64,000 nt of DNA from a virus (IMGVR_UViG_3300028394_002011); one strand, 5' to 3'. Shown: positions 7,787-32,934, counted from the first letter of the stretch. A program made the numbers and translations. The notes: generated by a model from the sequence alone, not told the origin.

Positions 7787-8527
7787 ATGAGTAGATTTTG
7801 GAAACATCCAACTGGTCTCACATTTAACGACCTGCAAAATAATGATTGGGATGTCATCGAATTAGCATTGACTGTTGATGCCGATCCGTTACTTCAATGG
7901 TATAAAGAAGTCGAAAAAAATAATCAAGATTCAATCTGGTCGTTGGATCGTACAGATTTGGTTGACGAACAGGTCATGGATAAATTCATAGCCGAACGCA
8001 CCCGAATTTTAGTTGGATTACCGCAACAATGGACACTGCAATGGAGTTACGAACGGGAAGGAGTATTACCATTTATGGGACTTGCTTGCCGGAAACAATT
8101 TCCAGAATGTTACGAAGAAGATTTTAAGAGTCGTTGGAATACTCCTCTTTCCAAATATTTTTATGGTGCTTGGAAGAAATATTACGAGTTACTTGGAGAA
8201 GACTGTTTTAAAGTTGCTAGACTAGTACACTTTCCCAAGTCTTGTGGGCTATCGACTCATGTTGATGTTGGCAACGATCAACCATTTTTAATTAGAATGC
8301 ACACACTAATTGATATCGGGCCAGACCACTGGTTTAGTTTTGGTGAAGATTTAGACGATAAGTCGCGTTGGTACAAAATGAAAACCGGATGCACTTACCT
8401 ATTGAATACTGGAATCCCGCATGCCGCAGTCAATTGGAACGAAAGTCCTTGGGTAATGTTGCACAATAATCCTACAGAAGGCGCAATTAACACCCTGCTA
8501 GCAATGAATGAACATATCAGTCTATGA
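7787..8527 (+). CDS. Asp/Asn beta-hydroxylase-family 2OG-Fe(II) oxygenase
   Basis: STHVD ... RMH ... YLLNTGIPHAAVN. Confidence 0.75.
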   Translation: MSRFWKHPTGLTFNDLQNNDWDVIELALTVDADPLLQWYKEVEKNNQDSIWSLDRTDLVDEQVMDKFIAERTRILVGLPQQWTLQWSYEREGVLPFMGLACRKQFPECYEEDFKSRWNTPLSKYFYGAWKKYYELLGEDCFKVARLVHFPKSCGLSTHVDVGNDQPFLIRMHTLIDIGPDHWFSFGEDLDDKSRWYKMKTGCTYLLNTGIPHAAVNWNESPWVMLHNNPTEGAINTLLAMNEHISL

Positions 8528-9363
8528 AAATTAGATTAGATACTGTTATTACTTCCGAGTTAGATTCTTGGCCGTTTGTACATACTTCTGCGGGCCAAGA
8601 CACAGTTGTACCATTTTACGGGCCTGATTCAGAAAATCTTTTTAAAAGAAATAAAAGGGAAATGCCCGATAATTGGATGTATCACAATACTGACATTGCA
8701 TATCATTTCAACAAACAAGGTCTTCGAATGAAGAAGAACTTAGAAGATGTTGCAGAAAATTATATATTGTTTTCTGGCGCAAGTTTTACAGCAGGTGTGG
8801 GCATACGAGAAGAGTCAAGATTTACAGAATTAGTCAGCAGTCGTGCTAATTTGGATTTTATAAATTTTTCAGGGCCGTTATACTCAATAAAATTACAAGC
8901 ATTGTCTTTTTTTAATTTTTTAAAAACAAATCATGTCCTTCCAAAAATTCTAGTTATTGAATATCCGCCGTGCGAAGGTTTTTTTTGTTATTCCGACGGA
9001 AACTTTCTTTTATATTCTCCAGACAAAGCCGCTGATGTTGTCAAATATCCAAATCATTTGACAGCATACCAATCACTTTCAGCAACAGATTTTCATTTAC
9101 AAGAAGCATTAATTTGGAATAGTATTCTTGAAAGCACTTGTAACAGATTAAACATTAAATTTATTCCTGTATCATTTTGGAAAGATGACCCGTTTGTTCA
9201 AAATAAAAATATTGCTTACGTAGATACCAATTCTAATTCGCATGATATAAACTATTGTTTCTCAAGAGATATTCATTTAAATCTGACAAATAATACTTAC
9301 ACTGCTCACCCCGGAATAGGTTTACATCAAGAGATGACTGATGTTATAATAAAGCTATTATGA
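8524..9363 (+). CDS. hypothetical protein, SGNH/GDSL-like
   Basis: NKQGLR...LFSGASFTAGVG N-terminal block and C-terminal AHPG. Confidence 0.5.
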   Translation: MKIRLDTVITSELDSWPFVHTSAGQDTVVPFYGPDSENLFKRNKREMPDNWMYHNTDIAYHFNKQGLRMKKNLEDVAENYILFSGASFTAGVGIREESRFTELVSSRANLDFINFSGPLYSIKLQALSFFNFLKTNHVLPKILVIEYPPCEGFFCYSDGNFLLYSPDKAADVVKYPNHLTAYQSLSATDFHLQEALIWNSILESTCNRLNIKFIPVSFWKDDPFVQNKNIAYVDTNSNSHDINYCFSRDIHLNLTNNTYTAHPGIGLHQEMTDVIIKLL

Positions 9364-10013
9364 GCCATTTAATTTTACACACTTCTGGTAGTACCGTTAC
9401 TCCAAAAGAGATTTCACATTCCTGGGAATACATAAATCAGTGTGCTCAAAATTCGATATCAGAAATTGGTTTAACATCTCAAGACATAGTGTTGGATGTA
9501 TTTCCTAGCAATGTAATTGCACACTATACCGTAACAGCCTTACCTGCTAAAATAAGCGGAGCAAAACTTATTACAAGTAATTTTAATGCATTTACATATT
9601 GTAAATTGTTTAACAAATATCGACCAACTTATATATCACTGATCCCTCGCCATATTGAATTGCTTGAAGGAACACAAGATTGGAATGACTTAGATATGAG
9701 TTGCGTTCGATATATGGTCATGGGCAGTCAAATTGTAACTCAAGATATCATTGACAAAGTTAGAAACAAAGGTGTTCAGCTAGTAGCAAATTGGTATGGG
9801 ATGACTGAAATGCCGCCGCCTGTATTAATAGGGTACAATAGTGAAGCATTTGACCTTTCACCTAAATCTAATTTTGTTGTGACTTTTTCCGATGAAGGAG
9901 AGTGTATAATTAATGATTATTACACAGGTGATATTTTTGACTTACACACACGAAAATTTCTAAGAAGAAAAATACATGCAACCAACAAAGATACCTGGAA
10001 GGCCGTGGCTTGA
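9360..10013 (+). CDS. truncated AMP-binding (acyl-CoA ligase-like) protein
   Basis: HTSGSTVTPK P-loop and WYGMTE motif in only 217 aa. Confidence 0.75.
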   Translation: MSHLILHTSGSTVTPKEISHSWEYINQCAQNSISEIGLTSQDIVLDVFPSNVIAHYTVTALPAKISGAKLITSNFNAFTYCKLFNKYRPTYISLIPRHIELLEGTQDWNDLDMSCVRYMVMGSQIVTQDIIDKVRNKGVQLVANWYGMTEMPPPVLIGYNSEAFDLSPKSNFVVTFSDEGECIINDYYTGDIFDLHTRKFLRRKIHATNKDTWKAVA

Positions 10014-10596
10014 ATTTAGGCTTTTACAAGAAAACGATTACAGTGATTTAGAAATTTTTTGTAATGAATGTAAAAAACTGAATTTAAAAAATAACGAAAG
10101 TTTTGATGCAATCAAACTAGATAAAATAAAGATGCCATACGGCCAGTATTTTATCGGTTACGATTATAATAGTGAAAGAATTTGGAACTTAGCGGGTATT
10201 CATAGATTGCCAGAAATTAATGATCGTGCATGGCGTTGTTTATTTCGAGGAGCACAGTTGCCAGGATATACTATGCAACAGATTCTAACTAAAAATATGC
10301 TTAAAACAAGTTATCAAATGACTTTTGTTTTGCATTGGCAAATTGAATTTATAAAATCAATGTATAAAGATGCAGAATTTTATACGTCAACAAATAATTT
10401 AAAGAACAAAGATGCTCCTATCAAAAGCCAGTTACTAGATCAAAAAGTAAATCCACTATTAGAAAATCAAGGAATATTTGAAAAAGTACACGATAATTTT
10501 TTATTATATAATACCAGTCAAAGTATATGGAAAGTACACCACAATGTACTAATCCAAGAACGTAACAAAGTTTTAGAAACGATGAATTTGTTTTAG
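9976..10596 (+). CDS. hypothetical protein, possible GNAT-like fold
   Basis: 206 aa ORF coupled to the upstream gene; fold guess is weak. Confidence 0.55.
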   Translation: MQPTKIPGRPWLEFRLLQENDYSDLEIFCNECKKLNLKNNESFDAIKLDKIKMPYGQYFIGYDYNSERIWNLAGIHRLPEINDRAWRCLFRGAQLPGYTMQQILTKNMLKTSYQMTFVLHWQIEFIKSMYKDAEFYTSTNNLKNKDAPIKSQLLDQKVNPLLENQGIFEKVHDNFLLYNTSQSIWKVHHNVLIQERNKVLETMNLF

Positions 10597-12102
10597 AATT
10601 TCTTCATTCTTACGATTATTCCTAGTAATGAACTTATAGTTAGATTCGGACTGAGAACAGAAGTGTTGATAGTTTTCTATTTGTTCAGGTGTAATTTCTG
10701 ATAAACTGTTATTAAATTTCTTGTCAAACCCTAATAATAAGCTAGTCCAGTTAAACTTGTTGAGTGCAGTTTCACCTTTTTGCAACATAGGGCCACGCAA
10801 TTTAGAACTAATAATATCACTGACCTCTTGGATGGCATTAGGATTTTTTTGATCTTTCCAATAATCGGTGTCATCCCTTTCGGACAATTGGTAATGATAC
10901 CCAACAAACGACTTAGTGTTATCTAGAAACTGTGACATTACAGTGTGTAACATTTTTGCAGAGCGGTTATCCCAACCATTGTTTCGATTATAAATTTCAA
11001 CGAATCTAATAGCAGTCCAACACGTAATCATGATACTAGTTGCTTCTAGAGGTTCTATAAAACTTTGAGATAATCCGTTTGCAAATACATTTTTAATGGC
11101 CAAGTCTGTACAACGGCCACTAGTAAAACTTACACGGTTATTCTCAGTCCATCTGTGACCCTTGTCGGCCCAGAATTTAACAATAGTATCGTGAGCTTCA
11201 TCGTCACTCATGTAATCACTACAATACACATGCCCGGATCCCATACGCCCCCATGTAGGGATGCTCCATATCCAGCCAGCTGGTTGAGCGTGAGCTTGCG
11301 TAGTTGATCGATAACTTTGATATCCGTCAACTCCTCCAAATATGGCTCTATTATTTTTCAATTTATCAAATTTAGTGAACCCAGTAAGTTTACCAATTAT
11401 TAATTTTTTCATGCCTGTACAATCAATAAAGATGTCGCCTGTAATAATTTGGCCGGTTTTTGTTTTTAGACTTTTAACACCATTGTCATCTATTTCAACA
11501 TCAATGATTGTATCAATAATTTCCGTAAATTTTTCTTTAGGAGTATGTTTTCTCAAACATTGGCTGTAATCATATGCATTAACGTGATAAGCATAACCGG
11601 CATATTTGCTAATATTGCATTGCCCTTGTGAATTATAATGACCTTTTTCTTCGCGAAGAATGTGTGCCATCGGGCCATGCATAGCATTAAATTTATCTAT
11701 ATTAAATCCAGTATCATTTTGGCGAAGTTTTAAAAAATAATCAATACTGGTTAATTTTTGTTCAAATGTGTCCTTGCCAAAATCAACAATGGGATTTGTA
11801 AATGCCTGTTCCAATATTTCTCCTTCAAAGGAGTGAAACCACTGGGATCCAAATTTGTTCCAATCTACAAAATCAATGCCGTATTTAAATGTTGCTCTAG
11901 CATCACGCATCCAAGTGTACTCATCAACTCCAACAGCATCGGCAACTTGCCTAATAGTGGGACTAGTACTTTCGCCTACTCCAATAATATCTATCTCGTT
12001 GCTGTGTATGATTGTAACATCGACATCTAATTTTGCAACAATATATGCAAGATTTATCCAACCAGCTGTGCCTCCGCCTACAATAACAATTTTCTTTTTC
12101 AT
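10573..12102 (-). CDS. flavin-dependent (tryptophan) halogenase family protein
   Basis: GGGTAGW FAD motif, GVGEST, ATFKYGI (catalytic Lys position), WIWSIP, FIEPLEATS. Confidence 0.92.
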   Translation of the reverse strand: MKKKIVIVGGGTAGWINLAYIVAKLDVDVTIIHSNEIDIIGVGESTSPTIRQVADAVGVDEYTWMRDARATFKYGIDFVDWNKFGSQWFHSFEGEILEQAFTNPIVDFGKDTFEQKLTSIDYFLKLRQNDTGFNIDKFNAMHGPMAHILREEKGHYNSQGQCNISKYAGYAYHVNAYDYSQCLRKHTPKEKFTEIIDTIIDVEIDDNGVKSLKTKTGQIITGDIFIDCTGMKKLIIGKLTGFTKFDKLKNNRAIFGGVDGYQSYRSTTQAHAQPAGWIWSIPTWGRMGSGHVYCSDYMSDDEAHDTIVKFWADKGHRWTENNRVSFTSGRCTDLAIKNVFANGLSQSFIEPLEATSIMITCWTAIRFVEIYNRNNGWDNRSAKMLHTVMSQFLDNTKSFVGYHYQLSERDDTDYWKDQKNPNAIQEVSDIISSKLRGPMLQKGETALNKFNWTSLLLGFDKKFNNSLSEITPEQIENYQHFCSQSESNYKFITRNNRKNEEILKQIHRF

Positions 12103-12701
12103 TTGTAGTAGTCCTGGTCTTTAAGTTGATCCATCAATCGATTTTCTTCAAAAGATTTTAATTTCCAGCCATTAGCTGATTCAGAACACCAGAACGGTAT
12201 CCACGCTAGTTGTGCTAGATACATTACAATACCTAATTCACCAAATATTAACAACAATAATAATAATAATATAACGGGCCCAATATAGGGAAACTTTTGA
12301 TAAATTTGATCTTCTAACATATTAGGAGTTTCAATAGAATAGTTAGCAATCATCTCAACAATTTTTCGTTGTTTTAAAAAAAGGGTTGCACGAACTAATC
12401 TTCCTGGTTTTCCGGAAGGATACACTTTATCTTCATGTATAGAGTTATGTCGATGTACAGCTGACCATTCTTTAATATTAAGGCCAGTCACCAGCCAGAA
12501 CCATAGCCTTGTAAATCTAGCTAGTAACGAAGATACATTAACCGGAACATTAGTAGTATCCCACCAATTCTCCTTCCACGGAACCCATGCATAGTTATCC
12601 CCTTGGTCCGCGAATCCTTTATGGGTACCTGGATGGATGTACCATCTAAAACAAAAGATGGTGAATACCATCATTAAAATTGAAACTAAAATATAAATCA
12701 T
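12099..12701 (-). CDS. degenerate fatty acid desaturase-like membrane protein
   Basis: FWLVTG...EWSAVHR, TP..LE, QLAWIPFW match delta-9 desaturases; His boxes eroded and the C-terminal HNNHH box is missing. Confidence 0.65.
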   Translation of the reverse strand: MIYILVSILMMVFTIFCFRWYIHPGTHKGFADQGDNYAWVPWKENWWDTTNVPVNVSSLLARFTRLWFWLVTGLNIKEWSAVHRHNSIHEDKVYPSGKPGRLVRATLFLKQRKIVEMIANYSIETPNMLEDQIYQKFPYIGPVILLLLLLLIFGELGIVMYLAQLAWIPFWCSESANGWKLKSFEENRLMDQLKDQDYYK

Positions 12702-13426
12702 AATTCTAATCCTATAATATCCTCTGCAAATATCTTACCATATAACTTGATAACAGGCGTGGTACCGTTATTATGTAACTCATGCGGTAATGATGTATTA
12801 ACCAAATAAACCCATCCATCTGCCGGAACTGTCATGCGTTCACCGTCTATAATCCAATATGTATCGTCGTTGGTGTACAAACAAATATGGAATCTAAATT
12901 TATCAGGAGCATCTTGATGTTTAACTAAAATAGTTCCTGGTGTTAATATGCTTACTAAAACTTTTTTGATCCGAGCTTGTTTTTCAATTTCTTTACAAAC
13001 TTCTAAAGCATACCCGTTGAAACATTCTCGCGGATTGAGATCATTAGAATCATGTTCTTCTCGGTACTCGAGTTTAGTATTACTGCGCTCAGGAGGAAGT
13101 GGCCCTTTTGCGTCTGACGGATTCCAGCATAAATTATACCATGCGGTATCATCCATAAATTTGTGTCCAGTTTTTGCTTCTGGATCGCTAGGATCTGTAC
13201 TCCACATATATTTGTGTTGGCCTTGAATAAATTTCCAGTCACTGTAATTATTTTCTAAGTCAGCATACCAGGTACGCATACGGTCGAGGTCAATCTTAAA
13301 CCAAGGTTTGATTTTCCAACCAACGTCAATTTCGGTAAATTCTCTAATATAATGTTTAAACCCGGGATACTGAACTCCCATTAAATCTAAATTTTTAAAA
13401 TCGGCTTCTTTACCTAATATTCTCAT
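12698..13426 (-). CDS. Asp/Asn beta-hydroxylase-family oxygenase
   Basis: VKHQD ... FRFHI ... YLVNTSLPHELHN. Confidence 0.8.
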   Translation of the reverse strand: MRILGKEADFKNLDLMGVQYPGFKHYIREFTEIDVGWKIKPWFKIDLDRMRTWYADLENNYSDWKFIQGQHKYMWSTDPSDPEAKTGHKFMDDTAWYNLCWNPSDAKGPLPPERSNTKLEYREEHDSNDLNPRECFNGYALEVCKEIEKQARIKKVLVSILTPGTILVKHQDAPDKFRFHICLYTNDDTYWIIDGERMTVPADGWVYLVNTSLPHELHNNGTTPVIKLYGKIFAEDIIGLEL

Positions 13427-14643
13427 AGTGTATGCCTTTTGGATAATAGGTATTGTATACGCCCAATCGGAATTTTGAAGAAAAGGTGAACCCTATCTCT
13501 ATTTCCTTTATTGTTTGTTCCGTGTTCTTTACTTGTATTAATGATATATGCCTTTCCCGGAACAAGTTTATATGTTGTTCCGTCAACAATAAAATCACAA
13601 TCGTCACTGTAAATAGGAAAATGCAATCTAAAATTTGTACCTTCATCGACATGTTTGCCTAACTGAACCCCAGGAGTATGAATAGAAATAACCATCTCTT
13701 CCATATAGGGAAATTCTTTGTAAAGTTTTTCTGCAAATCCAAACATCAATGGTGTAGTATTTGTAGCATAGTCAGTTGCCTCGTCATCCCTCCACGATTT
13801 AGTGTTCATAGGAGGACAGATATATTTGTTAGGATCTTTTAAATGGGTTAAAACAGCATAACCAAAAATTTCAATTTCTGGAATATAATCTGGTTTACGC
13901 ATATTCTTAATTAAACTTGACGACCATTTTCTATTGAAATGTGTTTCTTCTACTTCGTTGTAATACTGTTGTAGTTCATTAAGGTTGAATTCAACATTAT
14001 CTAATTCTAAGACACCAAAGTTAAATAAATTCTCATCAAGAACCCACTCATTGTTTAATATTTCATCAACCAAGTGCGTTGGGAATTTACAAATAAGATG
14101 AATCCTGTCAGTATCACCAGTGTTAACAGTTCCATGGGGAATAATAGTATTAACTAGGTAAGCGGAGCCTATTTCCATATTAAACTTTTCATCTTCAAAA
14201 AAGAACCACGAATCTGGATTTGTCATAATAGGTATGTGTATCTTTAAAAATTCATCGTTGTCTGGATGCAATTGAATTTTTGTGCCTGGAGGATGTCCAA
14301 CAATACCCGTTTGTCGAACTTCAGGAAATGTGTCTACTATCTTTTTTCCAAACCCAAAAACTAATTTAGTAGGATTTGAAAACTTATTTTCAGGATCAAC
14401 GAACTCTGAGGTAGTATCAATATGATAAGGCGGACAAGGAATATTTGTATCTATATAATTACTTTGAATTGCCCAACTGTAGGTATTGTCTACATTATGG
14501 TCTAAAGTTTCTGTTGTGCTGTTAGGCATCCATTTGAGGTGAGGGAATTTTTCTACAATTTGATTGTAGTAATGTAAAAGTTCTTTGTGATTAAATTTTA
14601 CATTATCAAGTTTCTTTATTTTGAAATCTAAACTTGTGACCAT
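13423..14643 (-). CDS. tandem two-domain Asp/Asn beta-hydroxylase-family oxygenase
   Basis: Two HxD...H sets: QLHPD/PHGTVN and GKHVD/EHGTNN. Confidence 0.82.
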   Translation of the reverse strand: MVTSLDFKIKKLDNVKFNHKELLHYYNQIVEKFPHLKWMPNSTTETLDHNVDNTYSWAIQSNYIDTNIPCPPYHIDTTSEFVDPENKFSNPTKLVFGFGKKIVDTFPEVRQTGIVGHPPGTKIQLHPDNDEFLKIHIPIMTNPDSWFFFEDEKFNMEIGSAYLVNTIIPHGTVNTGDTDRIHLICKFPTHLVDEILNNEWVLDENLFNFGVLELDNVEFNLNELQQYYNEVEETHFNRKWSSSLIKNMRKPDYIPEIEIFGYAVLTHLKDPNKYICPPMNTKSWRDDEATDYATNTTPLMFGFAEKLYKEFPYMEEMVISIHTPGVQLGKHVDEGTNFRLHFPIYSDDCDFIVDGTTYKLVPGKAYIINTSKEHGTNNKGNRDRVHLFFKIPIGRIQYLLSKRHTL

Positions 14644-15062
14644 AATAAATTATACACAAAAGTATTATAACTGTCAAACTTTGTTTTGTCATATACTTTG
14701 CGATATTCCTCTATAAATTTTGCCACCGCTGTGCTTCGAGATTTTCCTTTGGCACAATAAACATGTATTGTAGCGTCTTCTGGGATTGTGTCAACAAACT
14801 CTTTGATAGACTTGGCCTGACTAGATTTGCAAGCAACCGCATAATAAACAATTGGCCCAGACACTTTAATTTTATTACGTTCGGTATCGTCAAAAAACAT
14901 ATTAAGTACACGATCGTGGGGTTTTTTAAAAACCGGAATACCATATCTAGACCCAGAAGAATTGACACATATAAAATAATTATTTTTAAAATCTTCTATA
15001 TTTGTATCATTAAATCCAGAAGATATTCTAAAATTATCCTGATTATATACTTGTACTTTCAT
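14628..15062 (-). CDS. dual-specificity phosphatase-like protein
   Basis: VYCAKGKSRS = CxxGxxRS; FFDD acid loop. Confidence 0.75.
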   Translation of the reverse strand: MKVQVYNQDNFRISSGFNDTNIEDFKNNYFICVNSSGSRYGIPVFKKPHDRVLNMFFDDTERNKIKVSGPIVYYAVACKSSQAKSIKEFVDTIPEDATIHVYCAKGKSRSTAVAKFIEEYRKVYDKTKFDSYNTFVYNLLWSQV

Positions 15063-15786
15063 TCGTAAGCCCTAGTACATATTGCATTACATGCTGTTTA
15101 ATTCTAGAAATAGTATGAATCTTGAATCCACCGTTTGTTTCATTAGAAGTGCCATGCCAGTCAGCCGTGTTCAAAATGTATGCTTTTCCTACTTTCATAT
15201 GATAACTTCTATCTCTATCTTTTCCAAAGTGAAATAGTGCATTTTCATTAGAGTAGATTGGAATATGTAATTTTAAATCTTTGCTATCTGTATGCTGTCG
15301 TATATACATTCCTGGGTGATGTATTGTTACAACAGCTTTTTTCCAAGCATCTTCGCCAAATAAATTTATTAAGTAATCAAAATACCCAAATCTTAATTTT
15401 GATAATATGCGTGTTTCATTCCTAAATGTTTTTGTGTCAACTTCCGGAAATAGGTCAGCATTGCATTGTTCTGATGGCGGCAACGGTTCGTATCTTTCTT
15501 CGGTCCATGCAAGTGTTATTCCTTCAATTGGGCCGCAATAGTATCCGCAATACCCATCGTCAACCATTTGTTTGCTAGTTTCAACATTTAGCTTTTGAAG
15601 GTTGTTGTTGAATCCAAATTTTAAATTGCTGTATTGATCTTCTAGTATGTCGTACCACCTTTGCATTTTTTCCACATCAATGTTATAATTAAGCTCAATT
15701 AGATCCCAATCATTAGTTTCAAACAAAAATTCGTTTGTAATATGATGAGTATGGGGATCGTAATTCTTTATAATACGTGGATCCAA
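15043..15786 (-). CDS. Asp/Asn beta-hydroxylase-family oxygenase (TTG start)
   Basis: RQHTD ... LHIPI ... YILNTADWHGTSN; AGGAG RBS 7 nt before TTG. Confidence 0.8.
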   Translation of the reverse strand: MDPRIIKNYDPHTHHITNEFLFETNDWDLIELNYNIDVEKMQRWYDILEDQYSNLKFGFNNNLQKLNVETSKQMVDDGYCGYYCGPIEGITLAWTEERYEPLPPSEQCNADLFPEVDTKTFRNETRILSKLRFGYFDYLINLFGEDAWKKAVVTIHHPGMYIRQHTDSKDLKLHIPIYSNENALFHFGKDRDRSYHMKVGKAYILNTADWHGTSNETNGGFKIHTISRIKQHVMQYVLGLTNESTSI

Positions 15787-15827
15787 GATGGGTATCTCCT
15801 GATAATATCTTTGTTAAATATGTTGAA

Positions 15828-15835
15828 TATTTATA
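15828..15835 (-). promoter_or_regulatory. T4-like late promoter
   Basis: TATAAATA on the minus strand; opposing TTAAATA at 15814-15820 on plus. Confidence 0.7.
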
Positions 15836-15850
15836 CTATTCAAAATACCA

Positions 15851-16285
15851 ATGAAGCTAATCCGAAGAAACCTAGAGAAACGTCGTTCTGTATTTTTTGA
15901 GTATGACCGATACATCAAAATTTGGGATAGTCCGTCTGATGGATGGATAGCTAATCATGTTCGATTGCTTGAGGAACATGTACCAGGTTATGTTATAGAT
16001 CATGGAAAAAATTGGATTTCTTACAACATTGTTGCCGGAACCCCTGCAAGTGAATTTCCGCATTCACTTGAATTTGTAAAAAAAATACATGCGTTTTGTC
16101 TTGATCAAATTAGGAATACTAAACCGTGGTATCACGGTGATTGGTCTTTGAGTAATATTATTATAAACGGCAACACCATGACCATGGTTGATTGGGATAA
16201 TTTAGGGCAGTACCCCGACGATGAAGTCTATAATAAACTAAACAACGACTTAAAATCAGCTTTTGGAGATTTGTATATTTTTTAA
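15851..16285 (+). CDS. small kinase-like (APH/RIO-type) protein
   Basis: YHGDWSLSNII...VDWD catalytic and Mg-binding motifs. Confidence 0.75.
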   Translation: MKLIRRNLEKRRSVFFEYDRYIKIWDSPSDGWIANHVRLLEEHVPGYVIDHGKNWISYNIVAGTPASEFPHSLEFVKKIHAFCLDQIRNTKPWYHGDWSLSNIIINGNTMTMVDWDNLGQYPDDEVYNKLNNDLKSAFGDLYIF

Positions 16286-17724: not shown

Positions 17725-17757
17725 GAGATAATATTCCTGTGATAACTCTATAATACT

Positions 17758-19035: not shown

Positions 19036-19060
19036 AAAATCAATATCCTTATTGGCGGAA

Positions 19061-19068
19061 TATTTATC
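19061..19068 (-). promoter_or_regulatory. late-type promoter (divergent pair)
   Basis: GATAAATA on minus; GTAAATA at 19071-19077 on plus. Confidence 0.55.
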
Positions 19069-19124
19069 AAGTAAATAGTGCTATGAAACATTTTTACTTA
19101 ACAGCTATAGGACACAATTAACGA

Positions 19125-19688: not shown

Positions 19689-19689
19689 T

Positions 19690-24686: not shown

Positions 24687-24703
24687 GTGTTGTTCTCTTT
24701 GGA

Positions 24704-26002
24704 TTATCTTAAATTACTTAATTCTGGAAATATTTTTCTAAAATTAGTGCCGCGTTGGGCATCGCATGTTTCTAAATATTCAATGGTTGAAGGAAGTTTG
24801 CTAGACCAATCTTCGGACATCATATATTTAATTATTCCCATCCACCGTTGCAAGCCATACGAATTTGACATAAACTCTAAGTCGTGTGTGTTTTTAGAAC
24901 AAAAATAAGTTATTTGAGATTCTATTTCTTTTTTAATGTGTATAGGTAAAACCCTAATACTAAGATAGCTAGGAAGATAAACCAAATGAGTACCTATCAA
25001 TCCTGCACCGTACGGTGGCATGTTGATCTTCTTAAAATTCATACTGCGTTTCCATTGTACTAGATCCGGTAAATTCATTATGTTTAATAATTGCACAGCA
25101 CAGGCTATGTTTACAATAATGTTATCCGGTGTATCATCTAATCGTTGAAGATTCTTAATAATAGTTGACCACTTGCTTGGATATCTAATGTAATCGTTCT
25201 TCTCTCCCACAGCGTCAATGCTAAAATTAAATTTTACCTGTTTAAATTTACTCCACAAGTCAAATAATTTTTCTGGAAGTTCTAATCCGTTACTGTTGTA
25301 TCTTAAAACACAATCTTTAGCAACTCCGGATTCTATAATGAACTCTAGTATTTTATAATGTTCGGGTATAATTAAAGGCTCGCCGCCAGCAAAATATAAC
25401 TCTCGAATGTTACTAGCTTGGTCTTTCATGGTATCTAAGAAACTGCCTTTTTGATACCATGTATAATCAAACGTTAAATCCCAGCCTTGATCTTGTTTAA
25501 GATCTATAGTCTTATATTTTGGATACTGTATCTTCCATTCTTTGATCCAACTACTACTGTCATGAGGACTACACATCACACACTTGAGTTGGCACATATT
25601 TCCTAATCGTAAATCAAAGTACGGAATGTTAACTGGAAGACTTCCATCGGCCTCGGTTTGAGATACAATACTATCAATATTCAATCGATCTTTCCACACT
25701 ATTGTTTCCCAATTACGCTTACTTTTAATACCTTGGCTTTCTTCCTGGAAACATTTGGTACAACTACTTGGAATTTTATTATCCAGCATTTGTAATCTCA
25801 CATTGCGCATAAATTCACTATTCCAAACTTCTGTAATAGTGTGCGTTTTAAGATTCATGCCTGTTACAAGACCTGCATCCTTAACATCAACCATACCCGC
25901 ACCGCTGGCATTTGCTGTACAGCATACTCTAACATCGCCGTTTGGCCGGGTAGCAAGATGTATCCACGGTAGCGGACAGAATGTATTACTTTGATTTGAC
26001 AT
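24704..26002 (-). CDS. radical SAM protein with N-terminal SPASM/twitch domain
   Basis: CQLKCVMC; AGGEP; CPLPWIH...GDVRVCC...CTKC. Confidence 0.93.
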   Translation of the reverse strand: MSNQSNTFCPLPWIHLATRPNGDVRVCCTANASGAGMVDVKDAGLVTGMNLKTHTITEVWNSEFMRNVRLQMLDNKIPSSCTKCFQEESQGIKSKRNWETIVWKDRLNIDSIVSQTEADGSLPVNIPYFDLRLGNMCQLKCVMCSPHDSSSWIKEWKIQYPKYKTIDLKQDQGWDLTFDYTWYQKGSFLDTMKDQASNIRELYFAGGEPLIIPEHYKILEFIIESGVAKDCVLRYNSNGLELPEKLFDLWSKFKQVKFNFSIDAVGEKNDYIRYPSKWSTIIKNLQRLDDTPDNIIVNIACAVQLLNIMNLPDLVQWKRSMNFKKINMPPYGAGLIGTHLVYLPSYLSIRVLPIHIKKEIESQITYFCSKNTHDLEFMSNSYGLQRWMGIIKYMMSEDWSSKLPSTIEYLETCDAQRGTNFRKIFPELSNLR

Positions 26003-26030
26003 TTTTATATTTTGTGTACCATGCTTAGTT

Positions 26031-26885
26031 TCATTTCATTAAGTATCGTAATAACGGACTTAGTCCAACAAAATTGCCAGTTTGATTAAACGCCATATGT
26101 ATTGCATTAGACGGAGTCAGATTAAAATCTTTACAGATCTTAGCATTTAAATCTCCGTAAGAACTCCAAAGATAATCTGACTGAACATTATCAAGTATAT
26201 AGTTCCCAACGATAGCTCCCATTCTCAATTCCATGTGAAAGTCATTCATTATACTGATACTGTCAGGCAACAGATGTTTTGACCAACGTAAGCCGATTCT
26301 GTTCCAGCCAAGACCTAATCCCTTGCTCAAACTTATGCCCACGGATTTGATTGCAGGATGACCTATATCAAAGTCAATTCCGCGGCAACAAGTAAGCCAA
26401 GCACCATCCACATGTACATCAACATTTTTGTCTTGTGCTTCATTTAATATCTCCGTCATTTGATTATGTACTGCACCTGTGCTAGGAAATGGCATTGCAA
26501 TAATTAAAGGTATGCTTTCTTTTAGTGTACCTGGATATGTTGCTTGGTTGCCTAGTCTTTCATGGTACCGATAATCTCCAACAATAACTTGAGGTGGTCC
26601 TTGCATGTAGATATTATCTATAAATTGAGTACACCCGTTTATAATGTCCACACGATTAAAATTGTTAAAGCCTGATAGATGATTTAATCTTGAATCAAGT
26701 ATCCATTTACTAGCCTTTTCTTTAAATGTAGTGTTGGCAGTTATTCTGTGGTCGACTTCAAGTCCGCCGAAGCCGGTCATTACTTTTGAAAATAATGATT
26801 CTAAATGATTATCGCATAATGCTTGAGGCCGTTCAACTTCTAACCATTTAGCATCATATTCGGGAGCTATTTTTACTCGTTCCAT
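26031..26885 (-). CDS. PLP-dependent enzyme (fold type I)
   Basis: VHVDGAW and SLSKGLG (Schiff-base Lys). Confidence 0.75.
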   Translation of the reverse strand: MERVKIAPEYDAKWLEVERPQALCDNHLESLFSKVMTGFGGLEVDHRITANTTFKEKASKWILDSRLNHLSGFNNFNRVDIINGCTQFIDNIYMQGPPQVIVGDYRYHERLGNQATYPGTLKESIPLIIAMPFPSTGAVHNQMTEILNEAQDKNVDVHVDGAWLTCCRGIDFDIGHPAIKSVGISLSKGLGLGWNRIGLRWSKHLLPDSISIMNDFHMELRMGAIVGNYILDNVQSDYLWSSYGDLNAKICKDFNLTPSNAIHMAFNQTGNFVGLSPLLRYLMK

Positions 26886-28150
26886 TCTACTATCATCCTA
26901 TGACATCTGGGGAAAATTATTTTCCAATCTTTACCTTGTATTGCAGACATCTTTATAAAAAAGTTTAATAAATCTTTTCTGCCTTGCACAATTTCTTTGT
27001 CAGTCATAGGAAGGGTTTTAGAATACTCTTCCCATTGGGTTAGCATTGTCAATATTCTGTGGTTATCCGTTTGTTCTTTAAGATATTTAAATATTTCCAA
27101 ATGTTGCTTGGCAGTCATTAATCGTAAATTTAAATATTTTGGATTCATCACAGGATGACTTACTATATCAGAAAACGTATTAAGGTTAATCTTTTTAAAT
27201 TGTTTGCTCTCTAACCATTGCATCCACGTAACAAAGTGCTCAATGTTTAAAATTGATAAAGTTGTGCTAGTGAAGATAGAAAAATGATCGGGCATGCCAT
27301 CTAAAAAATCTAAGTTTTTTTCAATTACGTTCCATTTAGTTGGATAACGTATGGCCTCATTAACTTCGCCATACGCATCAATGGAACAACATAATTTAAC
27401 AAATTTAAATTGACTGATAGCATCTAGGAATTCTTTAGGAATGACTGTGACATTGATGCTGTACTCTAATTCAATATTTTTGGAAAATCCCTGCTCTATT
27501 AAATTTTTTAATAATATCAAGTGTTGTTTAACAAGCCACGGTTCACCGCCGCCAAATTTGATTTTTTGCAAATACTCTGAATGGTCAGTTAACAGTTGAT
27601 AATAGTCTTGCTGATTGCACCAATCAAAATGTTCGTGACCGTCTGTGCTATAAGTAACATGATCTATCATGAACACTTTAGATCCTGTAATTTGTTCTTG
27701 TATCTTATTCCACTGATTACTTTCGCCAGGATAGCACATAACACATTGCAGGTTACATTTATTACCTAGCCTTAAATCCATTGATAGTACCCGTTGTTCG
27801 GTCACAGTTCCGTCCAGCAGTGTGATTCGTTCAGCATCCTCTCTGGTAAAGTCATACATGGTCGCTTCCCATTGGTTGCGACTACGTTTTCCGGCAGCTT
27901 GCTCTAGTTTACAACGCCGGCATTGTTCCGGCCATTCGTTATTAAGAAATTTTATTCTAACATCTTTTAAAGTATCAGAATTTAATGCTTGATCAATATC
28001 ATTTATTCTTAAAAGTCTTCCATCTTTTTCAAGTAACGTATTTTTATTGCCGCCACTTTGGCTATGAGAGCATACCCGTAGATATCCGTTACTTTTAACA
28101 GCAACATGACTCCATGGGATAGGACACCATACGTTATCTAAATTGTTCAT
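26873..28150 (-). CDS. radical SAM protein with N-terminal SPASM/twitch domain
   Basis: CNLQCVMC; GGGEP; CPIPWSH...CRRC. Confidence 0.92.
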   Translation of the reverse strand: MNNLDNVWCPIPWSHVAVKSNGYLRVCSHSQSGGNKNTLLEKDGRLLRINDIDQALNSDTLKDVRIKFLNNEWPEQCRRCKLEQAAGKRSRNQWEATMYDFTREDAERITLLDGTVTEQRVLSMDLRLGNKCNLQCVMCYPGESNQWNKIQEQITGSKVFMIDHVTYSTDGHEHFDWCNQQDYYQLLTDHSEYLQKIKFGGGEPWLVKQHLILLKNLIEQGFSKNIELEYSINVTVIPKEFLDAISQFKFVKLCCSIDAYGEVNEAIRYPTKWNVIEKNLDFLDGMPDHFSIFTSTTLSILNIEHFVTWMQWLESKQFKKINLNTFSDIVSHPVMNPKYLNLRLMTAKQHLEIFKYLKEQTDNHRILTMLTQWEEYSKTLPMTDKEIVQGRKDLLNFFIKMSAIQGKDWKIIFPRCHRMIVEWNE

Positions 28151-29117
28151 TGGCCTTGTCTACTTCGCCGCATTGTTTAGTACATGCTCGCAAGGGTTTA
28201 TTAGACCACGTTTCTTCAATACGATTGAAAAATTGACTTTCAAATATATCTTCAAATGATTGTGTATTAAGATTTGGATTAACGAACCCTTGGTCTTTGT
28301 AATCAACTAGACTAAAGGTGTTGGGTGTTGTTCCAGTATAATCTAACCAACAACACGGAGTAACACTACCGTCTGCTCCTACAAACAAACTTTTATCTTT
28401 TTTAACTTTACAATTTATTTTTTTTGTTTCTTCCAATTTGATGGAAAACAATTTCTTAGATATATCAATGCTTCTTTCGGTAGGGTAAATTATATGGCTA
28501 GTCTTGCCTTCTTTGGTGAGAACTGGCAAGTGCCCATCTCGGAATCTAGCAGAATTCTTTTGTACAAATTCTGAGAATCCTAACTTTTCACTTAAACTCC
28601 TACATTCATCTATTTGATGTTTGTTGTGTTCGAACACTAACATGTGCCATCTTGCTAGGCCACCAGACTGAATAAAGACTGTGGCATTGTTAATTATCTT
28701 ATCAAAATTAGTTCCGATTCGATACAATGAATGTGTATCAGCTAACCCGTCAATACCAAATGTAACAAACACATTCAATTTGGCCAATTGTTCCCACCAT
28801 TTTTCTGATTGTGCGCTGCCATTAGTATGCAACCCTAGTTCTATGTTTGAGTTATGCTCTCTAACATACTGGAATACTTTAAGTGTATCTTTAGCAACTA
28901 TGGCATCGCCTGAGTTACCGCACATGAATAATTTGGTTAGCTGTTTGATAAAGGGAATAGGAAACCATTTTTTGAATTGGTCTATAGTAATTTCTGTTTC
29001 TATTAACCAAGGGTTTGCAATGCCGCCTTGTATATTACGTTGACACATCGGACAACTGGCTTGACATTTGTTTGTTAATTCTAAATGAATTTCTTTAATT
29101 TGATCTAATTTATACAT
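28134..29117 (-). CDS. radical SAM protein with C-terminal SPASM domain
   Basis: CQASCPMC; C-terminal C...DGSVTPCC...CTKQC. Confidence 0.92.
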   Translation of the reverse strand: MYKLDQIKEIHLELTNKCQASCPMCQRNIQGGIANPWLIETEITIDQFKKWFPIPFIKQLTKLFMCGNSGDAIVAKDTLKVFQYVREHNSNIELGLHTNGSAQSEKWWEQLAKLNVFVTFGIDGLADTHSLYRIGTNFDKIINNATVFIQSGGLARWHMLVFEHNKHQIDECRSLSEKLGFSEFVQKNSARFRDGHLPVLTKEGKTSHIIYPTERSIDISKKLFSIKLEETKKINCKVKKDKSLFVGADGSVTPCCWLDYTGTTPNTFSLVDYKDQGFVNPNLNTQSFEDIFESQFFNRIEETWSNKPLRACTKQCGEVDKANEQFR

Positions 29118-29730
29118 TTTTATGTCCTATAACCATCCATCGTTTGTATAACGGTAGTTCTAATTCTCCAGCCCATAATATTTCAAGTTGGCATTGCTCT
29201 TTAAATTCTTCTAAATCTTTAGAGATGCGCACATGTTCGGGAATGTTATAGTTATTGCTTTGAAGAACTAACAAACTATTTTGAGGGTGTCCACTAAGCC
29301 ATAAATCATATTGATCTTGTGTAATATGTTCACAACTAGTATTAATAATAATATCGGCATCACTTCTTATGGCACACATATCCGATGTAATTGCTCGAAA
29401 CTTTCCTAATATTTCCTCACCCTTATTCATCATAGTAGCAATAGATTCACAACTAGGATCTATATCAATACTGCGAATACTAGCTACCGGGATCCTACTT
29501 TGAAACATCATGCTGGCAAGAACACCAACCCACCCACCGTGAATGTCTATAGAAAAAGGCTTAGGCAATGTACAATCAACTTGAGGATGAACAACTAACT
29601 CTAACGAATTAATTAGCCACTCTTTACTTTTAAGTTGTCCTGACCAAAAGGCATCCATGGTCCGAATAGGATCTGGACTTTGTCGAATAGCTTGCATCCA
29701 ATAGTGTAAGTGTTCTGTATCAATTTTCAT
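29110..29730 (-). CDS. class I SAM-dependent methyltransferase-like protein
   Basis: DIHGGWVG motif I; SIDIDP motif II; INTSCEH. Confidence 0.7.
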   Translation of the reverse strand: MKIDTEHLHYWMQAIRQSPDPIRTMDAFWSGQLKSKEWLINSLELVVHPQVDCTLPKPFSIDIHGGWVGVLASMMFQSRIPVASIRSIDIDPSCESIATMMNKGEEILGKFRAITSDMCAIRSDADIIINTSCEHITQDQYDLWLSGHPQNSLLVLQSNNYNIPEHVRISKDLEEFKEQCQLEILWAGELELPLYKRWMVIGHKNV

Positions 29731-30911
29731 AAGTCAATTGCTCTTGTTTTTTTGCCCATTGCATTTCGTGGAACAGCATCTATGTATGTAAATTTTCTAG
29801 GAACACTGAAGTCTGGTAACTTTTTAAGAAATATTTCATTCATGGCAGTTTTATTAGTAACAGCGTTCTTATTAGTAAAAAATAATTCTATCCAATCTGT
29901 GCCTAAACTGTTTCTGACAACTGCAACGGCCTCTCCCAACTCCGCATCGTCTTCGGCAATTGTTTCAATGGCTAATAAACTAGCTTTAAATCCATTTAAT
30001 TTAACAATGTCATTTGACCTGCCTATAAATTTAATCATGTTATCTTGTTGATCCCACAAATCGTGAGTATTAAACCAACCATCAGTTAGTCCAAAGTCTT
30101 GTATATTAGCACACAGAGTTGGCCCTTTGATCCATAACTCTTTATTCATTATTTTAAACTCAGCAGACTGAGTTGAAGTTAAATTTAAGTATCTTGCAAA
30201 ATCGTCAGAGTTTGTTGATAATCGATGTAATATAGGAGTACCTACTTCCGTAGTTCCATACATGTGATTTAGAGCTTTTCCTTTATTTTTAAAAAAGAAT
30301 TCTACATGGCGATCAAGTACTGCCGAAGAACCTATTCCTACTTTATTATATTTTGAAAAATCAATAGGAACATTTCTCAAGCGTAAGTAGTCCATTAGTG
30401 CTGGTACTATAATAGTAACATTAGTATTTTGATTAAGATCATCTAGAATTGTTTCTCTTGATCCTAGCACTATGGAAAAATTGTGTTCTATTAAAGAAGG
30501 AATAATCATATTCCAAAACCCAACTGTAAATGCTGGTAACAGATTTAAAAATTTAACATTACTATCCCATCCCATGATAGTAGTAGACGAAATAATTGCG
30601 TGTTGTATCTGCTGTTTTTGATGCACAGCAATTTTAGGCAATCCGGTAGTGCCGCTAGTATGAAAAAACAAAGAGTCATTGTATGGTAAAGTTAAAACTT
30701 TCTCGTCTAGATACGACAACTCTGTTTTTGAAAGAAATGGTGCTTTAATAAAAATATTGCCGCCTACTGTCATCCAAGCGACATAAGCGGCAATATGCTC
30801 AGCGTGATCTATCGAACAGATTGTTACTACCTGTTCCTTTTTTAACTTATCTACATAATCTAAAACTTTATTCGATAGGTTAAGTAAAAGTCCGTTCTGA
30901 TAAATCTTCAA
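29727..30911 (-). CDS. AMP-binding acyl-CoA synthetase-like protein
   Basis: HTSGTTGLPK, YGTTE, GRSND, RNAMGK. Confidence 0.88.
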   Translation of the reverse strand: MKIYQNGLLLNLSNKVLDYVDKLKKEQVVTICSIDHAEHIAAYVAWMTVGGNIFIKAPFLSKTELSYLDEKVLTLPYNDSLFFHTSGTTGLPKIAVHQKQQIQHAIISSTTIMGWDSNVKFLNLLPAFTVGFWNMIIPSLIEHNFSIVLGSRETILDDLNQNTNVTIIVPALMDYLRLRNVPIDFSKYNKVGIGSSAVLDRHVEFFFKNKGKALNHMYGTTEVGTPILHRLSTNSDDFARYLNLTSTQSAEFKIMNKELWIKGPTLCANIQDFGLTDGWFNTHDLWDQQDNMIKFIGRSNDIVKLNGFKASLLAIETIAEDDAELGEAVAVVRNSLGTDWIELFFTNKNAVTNKTAMNEIFLKKLPDFSVPRKFTYIDAVPRNAMGKKTRAIDL

Positions 30912-30912
30912 T

Positions 30913-31485
30913 TTAAAACCTTCGAACTAAAAAAACTCTATATTGATTACTTTCGTAATCTCCGTAAGTTAATGCATACCCTGCCTCAACACTAACGTTT
31001 GGAGTAATCTTATAACCTAAACCGACACCATACAGATTTGTCTTCCATAATGACGAAGTATCATAGTTATTACGATATCGATACATAACATCTCCATATA
31101 TTTTTGATGTAAAATCATATTTTGTTCCGACAGTCAATGCGTAGTAGTTATAATCCGTTGCCGTTGCAGAATTAATATCTCTGCGGCCAACTGCTATCTG
31201 AGCATACGGCATGAATTGATCTATCTTTTTGGTATAACCTGTATATGCCTCATATCTTGATTCTGAAGGTATCGTTGTAAGTTCAGGATACCCTTTTTGG
31301 ATACTTGTTCCTAGATAGACTCCGTTATCATATCTATAAGATACTGCTACTTGATAAAGGTCAACAGTAAATGTTTTAGGGTAAGTGATATTTTCTTGGC
31401 CCACGCCTGCCGCAACCACAACAGTACCTGCCTGGGCTGTGGCCATACAGATCATACTTGCTAATATTGTTATTAATTTTTTCAT
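30913..31485 (-). CDS. outer-membrane beta-barrel protein
   Basis: Signal peptide MKKLITILASMICMATAQA (start moved to 31485); alternating aromatic beta-strands; C-terminal Phe. Confidence 0.75.
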   Translation of the reverse strand: MKKLITILASMICMATAQAGTVVVAAGVGQENITYPKTFTVDLYQVAVSYRYDNGVYLGTSIQKGYPELTTIPSESRYEAYTGYTKKIDQFMPYAQIAVGRRDINSATATDYNYYALTVGTKYDFTSKIYGDVMYRYRNNYDTSSLWKTNLYGVGLGYKITPNVSVEAGYALTYGDYESNQYRVFLVRRF

Positions 31486-31892
31486 ACAGATACCTTTCTC
31501 CAAGAAATTAAGTTCCAAGCACGTTCGTGTGCATAATGTACAACAATAAACAAAACATTAGTTACTATGGTCCACTCAATTGCGTCAGAACTTTGTAGAC
31601 CCATTACTATACCAAACACAAACAAAACAATCAACGACCAAATTCTCCATGTAATCGTTTTGGCAACAGTTCTCTTATGTAACTCATGAATTCCTTCCAT
31701 TCCCCATTTGACTCTAAGCCATAGTCGTTCTTGTATGTAAAATGTTAGAGATCCTAAAGTGTAAACCAAAATCACAAACTTCAATCCAAATCCGGCTCCG
31801 TAATTCATAACAATTGATGCAATGAATATTGATAATGCTACTGCTGTTCGATATGACAGCGTTTTAATAATAGTTCTTAAATTACTTTCCAA
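31482..31892 (-). CDS. DUF2061-like membrane protein (two repeats)
   Basis: ES..RTIIKTLSYR...YIQERLW and KRTVAKTITWR...YAHERAW. Confidence 0.75.
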   Translation of the reverse strand: MESNLRTIIKTLSYRTAVALSIFIASIVMNYGAGFGLKFVILVYTLGSLTFYIQERLWLRVKWGMEGIHELHKRTVAKTITWRIWSLIVLFVFGIVMGLQSSDAIEWTIVTNVLFIVVHYAHERAWNLISWRKVSV

Positions 31893-32877
31893 AATTATTC
31901 TCCTGTTTTATTTTTGGTATTTTTGAATCCGCAGAACTAACACATCTAGGAGTTGTGCAAGTCACCGGAGTTGTAAAAAGTTTAAAATCTTGTAATGTTC
32001 CTAACGGGACGTCATAACAGCTATACGATCGTTTTACTTCATTACCTCTTATTATAACACTTTGATAACCCGAATTACAAGTCCAATTGGTAAATTCATT
32101 AAATCCAAAAGCATTAAACCTTTCAGCTTGGTCAAATAGGTATTCGTCACCTTGTGAATCGTATAACGCCACTTGATAAACTTCCTCATCATCGGTACGT
32201 TGAGGAAACCCTGTTTGCATTTTATATATCATATCCTCATTATACCCCTCTACAATTGCGGTTGCTGACGGATTGCTTTGCGGTTTCAATGTAACGTTGA
32301 TGCCTCGGCTATGAAATCGTTCCATGCGGTCGTATAACTCATAAAACTTTTCAGGCACCATTACTTGATTGATTGTAACATGTACTAGTTCATACATTAA
32401 CTGTAAACACTTGTCGCCAAACTCTTGCTCTTTGGCAAACTCATCGTGATAACTGGCCGTGATACTCCTGCGTTGTAGCATTTCAGTATTAGTACACCAA
32501 GTGTTCCACCACTTACTTCCTGGCGACAAATTAGTTGTCATGTGTATACTTTGATAGGGCGTTTGTACTCCGTCATCCAAGTATTTGGTTAGTTCTAGTA
32601 AATGTTTATATGCAGTAGGCTCACCTCCACTGAACGACCAGTGGAACTGGTTAAACCCATTGGCTCGTGCTTGACGCTTAATCTCGTCTACAGTAGATTT
32701 ATATACTTCAAATGGTTGGTGATCCATTTGGTCACTGCGAGCATAGGGCCAACAGTAACTACAATTATAGTTACAAAACCTACCTAGGATCCAACTGGTA
32801 GAAAATAATGGTTTGGTTAACATTGTACGCTGTCCAAAACGTACAATATTCTTGAATGGAATATCTGTAAAGTTCAT
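31882..32877 (-). CDS. radical SAM protein
   Basis: CNYNCSYC; SGGEP; C-terminal CNSG...C...C..S; same subtype as 23131. Confidence 0.92.
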   Translation of the reverse strand: MNFTDIPFKNIVRFGQRTMLTKPLFSTSWILGRFCNYNCSYCWPYARSDQMDHQPFEVYKSTVDEIKRQARANGFNQFHWSFSGGEPTAYKHLLELTKYLDDGVQTPYQSIHMTTNLSPGSKWWNTWCTNTEMLQRRSITASYHDEFAKEQEFGDKCLQLMYELVHVTINQVMVPEKFYELYDRMERFHSRGINVTLKPQSNPSATAIVEGYNEDMIYKMQTGFPQRTDDEEVYQVALYDSQGDEYLFDQAERFNAFGFNEFTNWTCNSGYQSVIIRGNEVKRSYSCYDVPLGTLQDFKLFTTPVTCTTPRCVSSADSKIPKIKQENNFGK

Positions 32878-32934
32878 CGCGTATATTTAACCGCTATATT
32901 ACTAGCCAAAAAATTATGAGGTCACCAAAAGCAT

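Follow-up and report, generated by a model that had tools for sequence, protein, structure and literature searches.

A radical SAM and cupin gene island exchanged with the distal tail fibre in a giant freshwater phage, and its possible role in oxidative tailoring

What might a giant phage make with a dense island of tailoring enzymes placed beside its tail-fibre gene? We addressed this question in a 64-kb stretch of DNA (64,000 nucleotides, hereafter the window) from IMGVR_UViG_3300028394_002011, an uncultured giant T4-like phage of freshwater (lake) origin, in which positions 7787-32877 form an island rich in radical S-adenosylmethionine (SAM) enzymes and cupins. The explanation that we tentatively prefer, while granting it somewhat less than an even chance, is a coherent multi-step oxidative tailoring pathway acting on a small, probably sugar- or aminosugar-like substrate, with its product placed on an exposed structure. 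What is new here is the five-gene core of the island, the co-clustering of its gene families in Bdellovibrionota, the fusions of its pyridoxal phosphate (PLP)-like domain, and a swap of the whole island that starts within the fibre gene.

A conserved radical SAM core in phages and Bdellovibrionota

The core operon lies on the minus strand at 23131-32877, with a TAAATA motif at 32889 (minus strand). In order from the promoter, its genes are:

31882-32877, minus strand, radical SAM protein of a third family (paralog of 23131-24033)
31482-31892, minus strand, DUF2061 membrane protein
30913-31518, minus strand, outer-membrane barrel (match below the Pfam cutoff, plus a signal peptide)
29727-30911, minus strand, adenylating enzyme of compact form (TSGTTGLPK motif intact)
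29110-29730, minus strand, Rossmann-like gene
28134-29117, minus strand, radical SAM protein with the usual order of radical SAM domain, then SPASM
26873-28150, minus strand, N-twitch radical SAM protein (NF033640, 288.1 bits)
26031-26885, minus strand, PLP-like gene (profile match to fold-I aminotransferases, E 0.004)
24704-26002, minus strand, N-twitch radical SAM protein (NF033640, 418.5 bits)
24030-24686, minus strand, cupin (HxD motif and weak homology)
23131-24033, minus strand, radical SAM protein of the third family (paralog of 31882-32877)

To define what is conserved, we surveyed 16 IMG/VR loci of at least 12 kb, many of them truncated, anchored on the ortholog of 24704-26002 (47-80% identity). 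Genes of the 31882, 29110, 28134, 24704 and 23131 types were present in all 16 viral loci in conserved order, the 24030 cupin in 12 of them, a propeller pair (19654-20904 and 20894-22057) in about half, and a kinase-like gene (15851-16285) beside the propellers in 8. Approximately 20 of the 29 island genes recur in the close relatives G001, G002 and L001, and the four genes of operon 1 (7787-10596) are syntenic in L005-L009 at 41-65% identity. An earlier reading of the window from its sequence alone (the original prediction) had set a pathway against genes that would be scattered and assort independently in relatives; the conserved gene order found here supports a coherent system.

The same families occur in bacteria. 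A scan of prokaryotes (one genome per species) with the N-twitch radical SAM proteins as queries gave 318 relatives, the best 80 of which came almost all from metagenome-assembled genomes of Bdellovibrionota, many on contigs of 0.5-3 Mb. These loci, which hold one to nine N-twitch copies, are taken to be chromosomal because their neighbours are housekeeping genes. Among 79 bacterial loci, the 31882/23131 type was found in 38-39 (up to 53% identity), the 28134 type in 32, the 29110 type in 14 and the 26031 type in 12, and cupins were present too. The fibre, propeller and 19125 families were sought in the bacterial loci and none was found; thus the enzyme set does not require phage virion proteins as its substrate. 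Bdellovibrionota may be either the host of this phage or merely a partner in gene exchange. Literature searches for Bdellovibrio radical SAM arrays returned nothing relevant. It should be noted that the closest cellular relatives of three island radical SAM families concentrate in Bdellovibrionota, as judged from the loci of the best 80 of 318 N-twitch relatives.

The fusions concern the 26031 family, which is small (295 clusters among 1.84 billion representatives) and has an invariant Lys in SLSKG. In proteins found elsewhere, the 26031-like domain is fused either to a radical SAM domain, which may stand before or after it, or to a PhyH dioxygenase, which ties radical SAM, oxygenase and PLP steps to one substrate.

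The seven radical SAM genes of the island, a number already given in the original prediction and confirmed here by Pfam, NCBIfam NF033640 and paralogy, fall into three families. The N-twitch proteins match NF033640 (N_Twi_rSAM; curated whole-protein cutoff, 170 bits), a family without assigned function or PDB sequence relative that the island proteins resemble in having four N-terminal Cys ahead of CX3CX2C; the members found here are phage-borne and stand beside two other radical SAM families. Across 30 sequences, C9, C27/C28, C81 and C84, followed by C137/C141/C144, are invariant or nearly so, and Pfam places SPASM (9-84) before Radical_SAM (133-289). In a maximum-likelihood tree, each N-twitch paralog of the window joins a different bacterial lineage (supports 97/93, 98/97 and 95/96), which argues for old, distinct subfamilies and no recent duplication. 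Searches of PDB sequences with 24704-26002, 26031-26885, 31882-32877 and a 29110 profile gave nothing or weak generic matches, and thousands of close relatives of the core genes were found in lake and ocean metagenomes.

The window contains a second low-GC island (47384-56877; GC 0.30-0.34). Besides a methyltransferase, it encodes six further radical SAM proteins from the families of the first island, which brings the total for the window to 13 radical SAM genes. Five genes of this second island also match NF033640, and the matches over both islands span 199-418 bits. The second island of G001 encodes a 682 amino acid protein (L013:8470-10518) with a 23131-type radical SAM domain in its C-terminal half and an unlabelled N-terminal half.

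Exchange with the distal fibre, gene content and expression

Comparison with G001, a relative of 356,312 bp from IMG/VR that is 96% complete, shows how sharply the island is bounded. The flanks are 90-93% identical in DNA and 93-100% in protein, whereas island DNA is 65-71% identical or unalignable and its orthologs range from 23 to 88%. The left boundary lies inside the fibre gene, where DNA identity stays at 93% as far as 6463, falls to 83% between there and 6841, and is lost beyond; at the right boundary (32956-33065, plus strand) it returns to approximately 90%. Absent from G001 are the halogenase, the desaturase relic, 17758-19035, 22057-23148, 26031-26885, 26873-28150 and the stretch 29727-31892, the last of which is missing from the relatives compared. 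G001 also has a different 9.3-kb set in place of the second island. In the lake sample X4, the phage core is covered deeply, the island is missing and contigs break near 6462. The contrast between flanks and island, together with sample X4, shows that the island moves as a cassette and that the distal fibre is replaced along with it; phages whose cores are almost the same exchange it by recombination, with the left breakpoint inside the fibre gene. An independent 2022 sample carries the island at approximately 98% identity, halogenase included; one of its contigs bridges 10241-12753 and so spans the halogenase.

A 96-nt tRNA-like gene (32970-33065) sits at the right boundary; ARAGORN calls it tRNA-Pro(ggg), it has its own TTGACT-17-TATAAT, and a counterpart adjoins the 31882 ortholog in L001, L012 and L095.

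The remaining features of the island and of its left side are the following:

6-4013, tRNA array in the left flank
6541-7719, plus strand, tail-fibre-like gene (PF18454 Mtd_N, E 3.6e-8)
7787-10596, plus strand, operon 1: cupin, SGNH-like ORF, AMP-binding part and its partner (TATAAATA at 7756)
7787-8527, plus strand, cupin, by paralogy to the cupin at 15043-15786
8524-9363, plus strand, SGNH-like open reading frame (ORF)
9360-10013, plus strand, N-truncated AMP-binding part (PF00501, E 2.5e-17)
9976-10596, plus strand, unlabelled partner ORF of the AMP-binding part
10573-12701, minus strand, accessory pair: halogenase and desaturase fragment
10573-12102, minus strand, flavin halogenase (PF04820, E 6.5e-90, residues 4-460)
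12099-12701, minus strand, DesA-type desaturase fragment (NF049918 positions 38-170 of 385)
12698-15786, minus strand, cupin array with a phosphatase-like gene inside (TATAAATA at 15835-15828, minus strand)
12698-13426, minus strand, PF05118 cupin
13423-14643, minus strand, PF05118 cupin with two domains
14628-15062, minus strand, phosphatase-like gene (CX5R(S/T) motif, phrog_5614)
15043-15786, minus strand, PF05118 cupin
15851-16285, plus strand, APH-like, kinase-like gene (HGDxxxxN loop; PF01636, E 0.0087, below cutoff)
16256-19035, minus strand, operon of 17758-19035, 16975-17724 and 16256-16990 (ATAAATA at 19067, minus strand)
16256-16990, minus strand, PF05118 cupin (E 2.8e-9)
16975-17724, minus strand, ORF without a label, between the cupin at 16256-16990 and the radical SAM gene at 17758-19035
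17758-19035, minus strand, N-twitch radical SAM protein (NF033640, 361.3 bits)
19125-23148, plus strand, operon of the 19125 gene, two propellers and an N-twitch radical SAM gene (TAAATA at 19072)
19125-19688, plus strand, 187 amino acid ORF with a weak tail-fibre-like Atlas lead
19654-20904, plus strand, 8-bladed propeller, paralog of 20894-22057
20894-22057, plus strand, 8-bladed propeller (AlphaFold2 model, pLDDT 90, with eight-bladed matches)
22057-23148, plus strand, N-twitch radical SAM protein (NF033640, 198.8 bits)

In all, the island comprises 29 ORFs of at least 136 amino acids in six strand blocks of mixed orientation. The tight packing described in the original prediction holds, with overlaps at 22 of the 28 gene junctions, a widest gap of 89 nt and a coding fraction of approximately 100%; its count was about 27 genes. 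It was also right that the island is AT-richer than its surroundings, since GC is 0.33-0.37 inside (approximately 35%) and 0.40-0.42 in the flanks (approximately 41%). To the left, the tRNA array is accompanied by a phosphoesterase and a kinase-like gene; to the right lie small genes and a DNA ligase, and a baseplate gene of the T4 gp9/10 type first appears at 62935. At the DNA level, neither the island nor its left flank matched any of 50,697 phage records, tRNAs excepted.

Most of the enzyme assignments made earlier held up. The six genes of Asp/Asn beta-hydroxylase type, with seven domains, are borne out by PF05118 matches, paralogy, weak homology and HxD motifs, which all of them keep. By family and motifs, 10573-12102 is predicted to be an intact flavin-dependent halogenase of the tryptophan type, as had been proposed, with both GxGxxG (GGGTAG at 9) and WxWxIP (WIWSIP at 277) in place; it is approximately 30% identical to cyanophage halogenases. 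The neighbouring desaturase is indeed a relic, given the part of NF049918 that it covers, and the two genes form an accessory pair that occurs in this phage only among the phages compared (absent from G001, G002 and L001). Both adenylate-forming enzymes, at 9360-10013 and 29727-30911, proved to be AMP-binding proteins, the former being kept in its N-truncated form as a separate ORF in relatives, and the outer-membrane barrel was likewise recovered. For four other enzymes, the earlier label stands in part: the PLP enzyme has an aminotransferase profile match that is weak, the methyltransferase is Rossmann-like with no closer assignment, the kinase has the HGDxxxxN motif with a PF01636 score under the cutoff, and the phosphatase has its CX5R motif and no other support. 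PHROGs and NCBIfam searches with the unlabelled island ORFs gave almost no matches. The phosphatase-like gene and 5112-5579, a gene of the conserved core of the phage, both match phrog_5614.

The Mtd_N N-terminus of the fibre is of the type known from the tropism determinant of Bordetella phage, and three Asn-rich repeats of approximately 44 amino acids lie within the protein. A second, template-repeat copy was sought elsewhere in the window and none was found, so that nothing there points to a diversity-generating retroelement. The original prediction had also listed fibre-like and propeller proteins within the island. The propellers are backed by the AlphaFold2 model and by paralogy; they form a virus-only family, and a fold search returned generic WD40, BamB and designed propellers and nothing else. 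The fibre-like label of 19125-19688 did not survive, as hhalign of its family against the fibre family gave a probability of approximately 1%, and we dropped it except for the Atlas lead, which is sub-threshold (0.88-0.89) and points to tail-like trimerisation proteins.

Late-type motifs at the operon heads, which the original prediction had reported, were found throughout: TAAATA precedes the first gene of all six island blocks. Of the nine copies of the longer form, ATAAATA, in the window, seven are intergenic and at most 55 nt upstream of a gene start on the same strand, and one (6486) precedes the fibre gene. In all nine relatives in which the 31882 ortholog heads the operon, TAAATA is kept 12-26 nt before its start. 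The best reading of these motifs is that the island would be mainly late-expressed.

In this phage, the late motif lies only 6 nt ahead of the ATG of 31882-32877 (32877-32895, minus strand), with similar spacing in relatives; either the mRNA would be leaderless or the true start codon lies further downstream.

The statement that no consensus sigma-70 promoter lies inside the island proved incorrect: a perfect 12/12 TTGACA-17-TATAAT is present at 14677-14649 (minus strand), where it immediately precedes 13423-14643 and has the cupin, desaturase and halogenase genes downstream. Neither L001 nor L009 has kept this site. Six perfect copies occur in the 64 kb, at 1101, 3622, 41092, 43454 and 56910 (plus strand) and 14677 (minus strand), far above chance; five of the six lie in core intergenic regions and one inside the island, and they are probably phage early promoters.

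What the pathway may act on

Under our preferred reading, a conserved core of three radical SAM families, the Rossmann-like protein and a cupin, joined in most relatives by two propellers and the kinase-like gene, would have been extended in particular lineages by the cupin array, the halogenase, the adenylating enzymes, the PLP-like enzyme and the outer-membrane protein. The radical SAM enzymes would carry out hydrogen abstraction or oxidation, the PLP enzyme would handle keto and amino groups, the cupins would hydroxylate and the halogenase halogenate the substrate, the adenylating enzymes would acylate it, and the product would be placed on the virion or on the envelope of the infected cell.

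PLP enzymes rarely have protein substrates, and the fusions of the PLP-like domain with radical SAM and dioxygenase domains speak for a substrate that is a small molecule or sugar-like, and against modification of proteins directly. Several neighbours point towards a sugar: the aminotransferase match itself, the kinase-like and phosphatase-like genes, DegT and hexapeptide transferase genes that adjoin a related phage island, a gene of nucleotidyltransferase/mannose-6-P-isomerase type in the second island of G001, and bacterial neighbours that include family 2 glycosyltransferases (GT2; 5 of 140), PfkB and PGM. Amidinotransferase and DegT-type genes have also been reported beside phage radical SAM genes (PMC2853527, among other sources). 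We regard a sugar- or aminosugar-like substrate class as a possible assignment, to be held tentatively.

Several observations weigh against it. We found no glycosyltransferase, sugar-nucleotide or sugar-activating gene in the island with Pfam, NCBIfam or PHROGs, and the GT2 enrichment among bacterial neighbours rests on small numbers. The aminotransferase assignment of 26031-26885 is weak (E 0.004), so that of the link between twitch radical SAM and PLP enzymes expected for BtrN-like aminosugar tailoring, the fusions are seen and the aminotransferase match is faint. In a fold search with the N-twitch model, the nearest structures were the peptide maturases CteB, SkfB, SuiB and anSME (TM approximately 0.3), while the twitch dehydrogenase SpeY ranked 33 and there was no specific similarity to BtrN; these modelled matches appear generic to radical SAM/SPASM folds and do not settle the substrate. 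PF05118 cupins are best known for acting on proteins (AspH) and lipids (LpxO), and tryptophan-type halogenases and adenylating enzymes usually take aromatic, amino-acid or acyl substrates. An amino-acid, acyl or protein substrate would suit the cupins, the halogenase and the adenylating enzymes just as well.

Direct post-translational decoration of virion proteins is the next alternative, with the fibre, the 187 amino acid protein or the propellers as targets, on which cupins would hydroxylate Asn/Asp, radical SAM enzymes would cross-link or epimerise, and the halogenase would act on Trp/Tyr. The late motifs at all operon heads, the exchange of the island along with the distal fibre and the Asn-rich repeats of that fibre all fit, as do the conservation of the propellers and 19125-19688 within the island, the protein- and peptide-modifying activity of the nearest radical SAM folds, and the Atlas lead. 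The bacterial arrays, however, carry the same enzymes without fibre or propeller genes, the PLP-enzyme fusions are unusual for protein modification, nothing places the virus-only propellers in the virion, and 19125-19688 has no profile similarity to the fibre; we consider this alternative unlikely. The original prediction had reasoned from late timing and embedded structural genes to virion decoration or a virion-associated small molecule. The late motifs (6/6 heads, 9/9 relatives), the swap with the distal fibre and the coherence of the system agree with that reasoning, whereas the no more than putative virion role of the embedded genes, the bacterial set that lacks them, the PLP fusions and the one early-type promoter weaken it.

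Remodelling of the infected cell's envelope (lipopolysaccharide, lipid A, or outer-membrane lipids or proteins), so as to block superinfection or change a receptor, would make use of the LpxO-type cupin family, the desaturase fragment, the FadD-like adenylating enzymes, and the phage outer-membrane barrel with its signal peptide and the DUF2061 membrane protein. It would also agree with the one early-type promoter and with the host-recognition island proposed for pelagimyophages (PMC7029224). Yet relatives lack the barrel, the AMP ligase and the membrane protein, which are thus accessory genes, the desaturase is a relic, the operons bear motifs that would be late for exclusion, and the core enzymes look soluble, which makes this a still less probable explanation than protein decoration.

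A plastic region that gathers unrelated auxiliary genes with no shared pathway is disfavoured and, in our estimate, quite improbable: the low GC, the mixed orientation, the gain and loss of genes between relatives, the desaturase relic and the split or truncated AMP-binding gene would be expected of it, but 16 loci at 47-80% identity keep the order of the core, bacteria carry the families together as well, and domain fusions link them. Least probable of all is a peptide natural product of the RiPP (ribosomally synthesised and post-translationally modified peptide) kind with a phage- or host-encoded precursor, for although many SPASM/twitch radical SAM enzymes together with hydroxylases and a halogenase are what one would expect for RiPP tailoring, CteB, SkfB and SuiB are among the fold matches and NCBIfam gives weak matches to PapB and YhhB, the gaps of at most 89 nt leave no free small ORF, Pfam, NCBIfam and PHROGs detect no RiPP recognition element (RRE)/PqqD, leader peptidase or exporter, the NCBIfam maturase matches lie far under their cutoffs, and no peptide gene accompanies the core in the 16 loci that share it. 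The best reading is thus that the island is not a RiPP system, and, as originally stated, no precursor peptide, nonribosomal peptide or polyketide synthase core, or sugar-nucleotide gene was found in it.

Returning to the tailoring pathway that we prefer, a broader version of it can be put forward as a speculative and, taken whole, doubtful proposal: phages and predatory Bdellovibrionota may share an ancient pathway of at least three radical SAM families, each with its own conserved subfamilies, that makes a new class of sugar-like decoration or of metabolite associated with the virion, heavily oxidised, carrying amino groups and in some cases halogen, and the joint swap of cassette and fibre tip may retune which cells the phage can attack and from which it is shut out.

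Comparable phage arrays

The original prediction knew of no characterised counterpart to this island. As worded, this was too strong, since comparable arrays have been described (PMC2938197, PMC2853527, PMC7029224), though none is biochemically characterised. The T4-like Campylobacter phages CP220 and CPt10 carry 11-12 radical SAM genes, including an interchangeable five-gene radical SAM module, and their multi-radical SAM block differs between near-identical genomes, from which en-masse acquisition was inferred (Timms et al., 2010, PMC2853527). A replaced multi-radical SAM block is likewise what we observe for both islands against G001; the CP220 modules differ in having amidinotransferases and no cupin/halogenase array, and in host and habitat. 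A tblastn search with 24704-26002, which covers the N-twitch family alone, matched 4 phage records, none from a Campylobacter phage and CP220 not among them.

The Syn9 arrays, in the passages that treat them in Iyer, Abhiman, de Souza and Aravind (2010, PMC2938197), comprise ten dioxygenases and two halogenases, which the authors predicted to hydroxylate and halogenate, in successive steps, a metabolite derived from an amino acid. Tandem Fe-oxygenase genes with a flavin halogenase in a T4-like aquatic phage are thus common to both; the oxygenases here differ in being PF05118 cupins and not classical 2-oxoglutarate or JmjC enzymes, and a large radical SAM core such as the present one goes unmentioned in those passages. 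The host recognition cluster of pelagimyophages and cyanomyophages, a variable island with tail fibres and radical SAM cassettes for which a role in surface alteration was proposed (Zaragoza-Solas et al., 2020, PMC7029224), shares with our island its large size and variability, the presence of a fibre, cassettes that differ between close genomes, and a fixed site between core genes. That cluster lies in the structural module, between VrlC and gp14, and is rich in glycosyltransferases, whereas a tRNA array and replication-type genes flank the island described here, which has no glycosyltransferase. A paper on large aquatic 'moraphage' phages (PMC12619734) was considered and set aside as describing a different lineage. 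Two things set the island apart: a radical SAM core joined to an array of cupins and a halogenase, and the sharpness of the boundaries at which it is swapped.

The two islands take up approximately 35 kb, or about 10% of the approximately 356-kb genome, and place oxygen-sensitive radical SAM enzymes beside oxygen-dependent hydroxylases and a halogenase. The five-gene core, the gene fusions and the bacterial counterparts make the gene set now testable. If the product decorates a surface, abundant aquatic phages would have a further, so far unrecognised, level at which phage and host recognise each other, and a link to Bdellovibrionota would join two kinds of predators of Gram-negative cells.

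Finally, between the two islands, the window encodes a membrane protein of the Bax inhibitor-1 family (45415-46110; PF01027, E 5.8e-54), whose copy in G001 is 98% identical.

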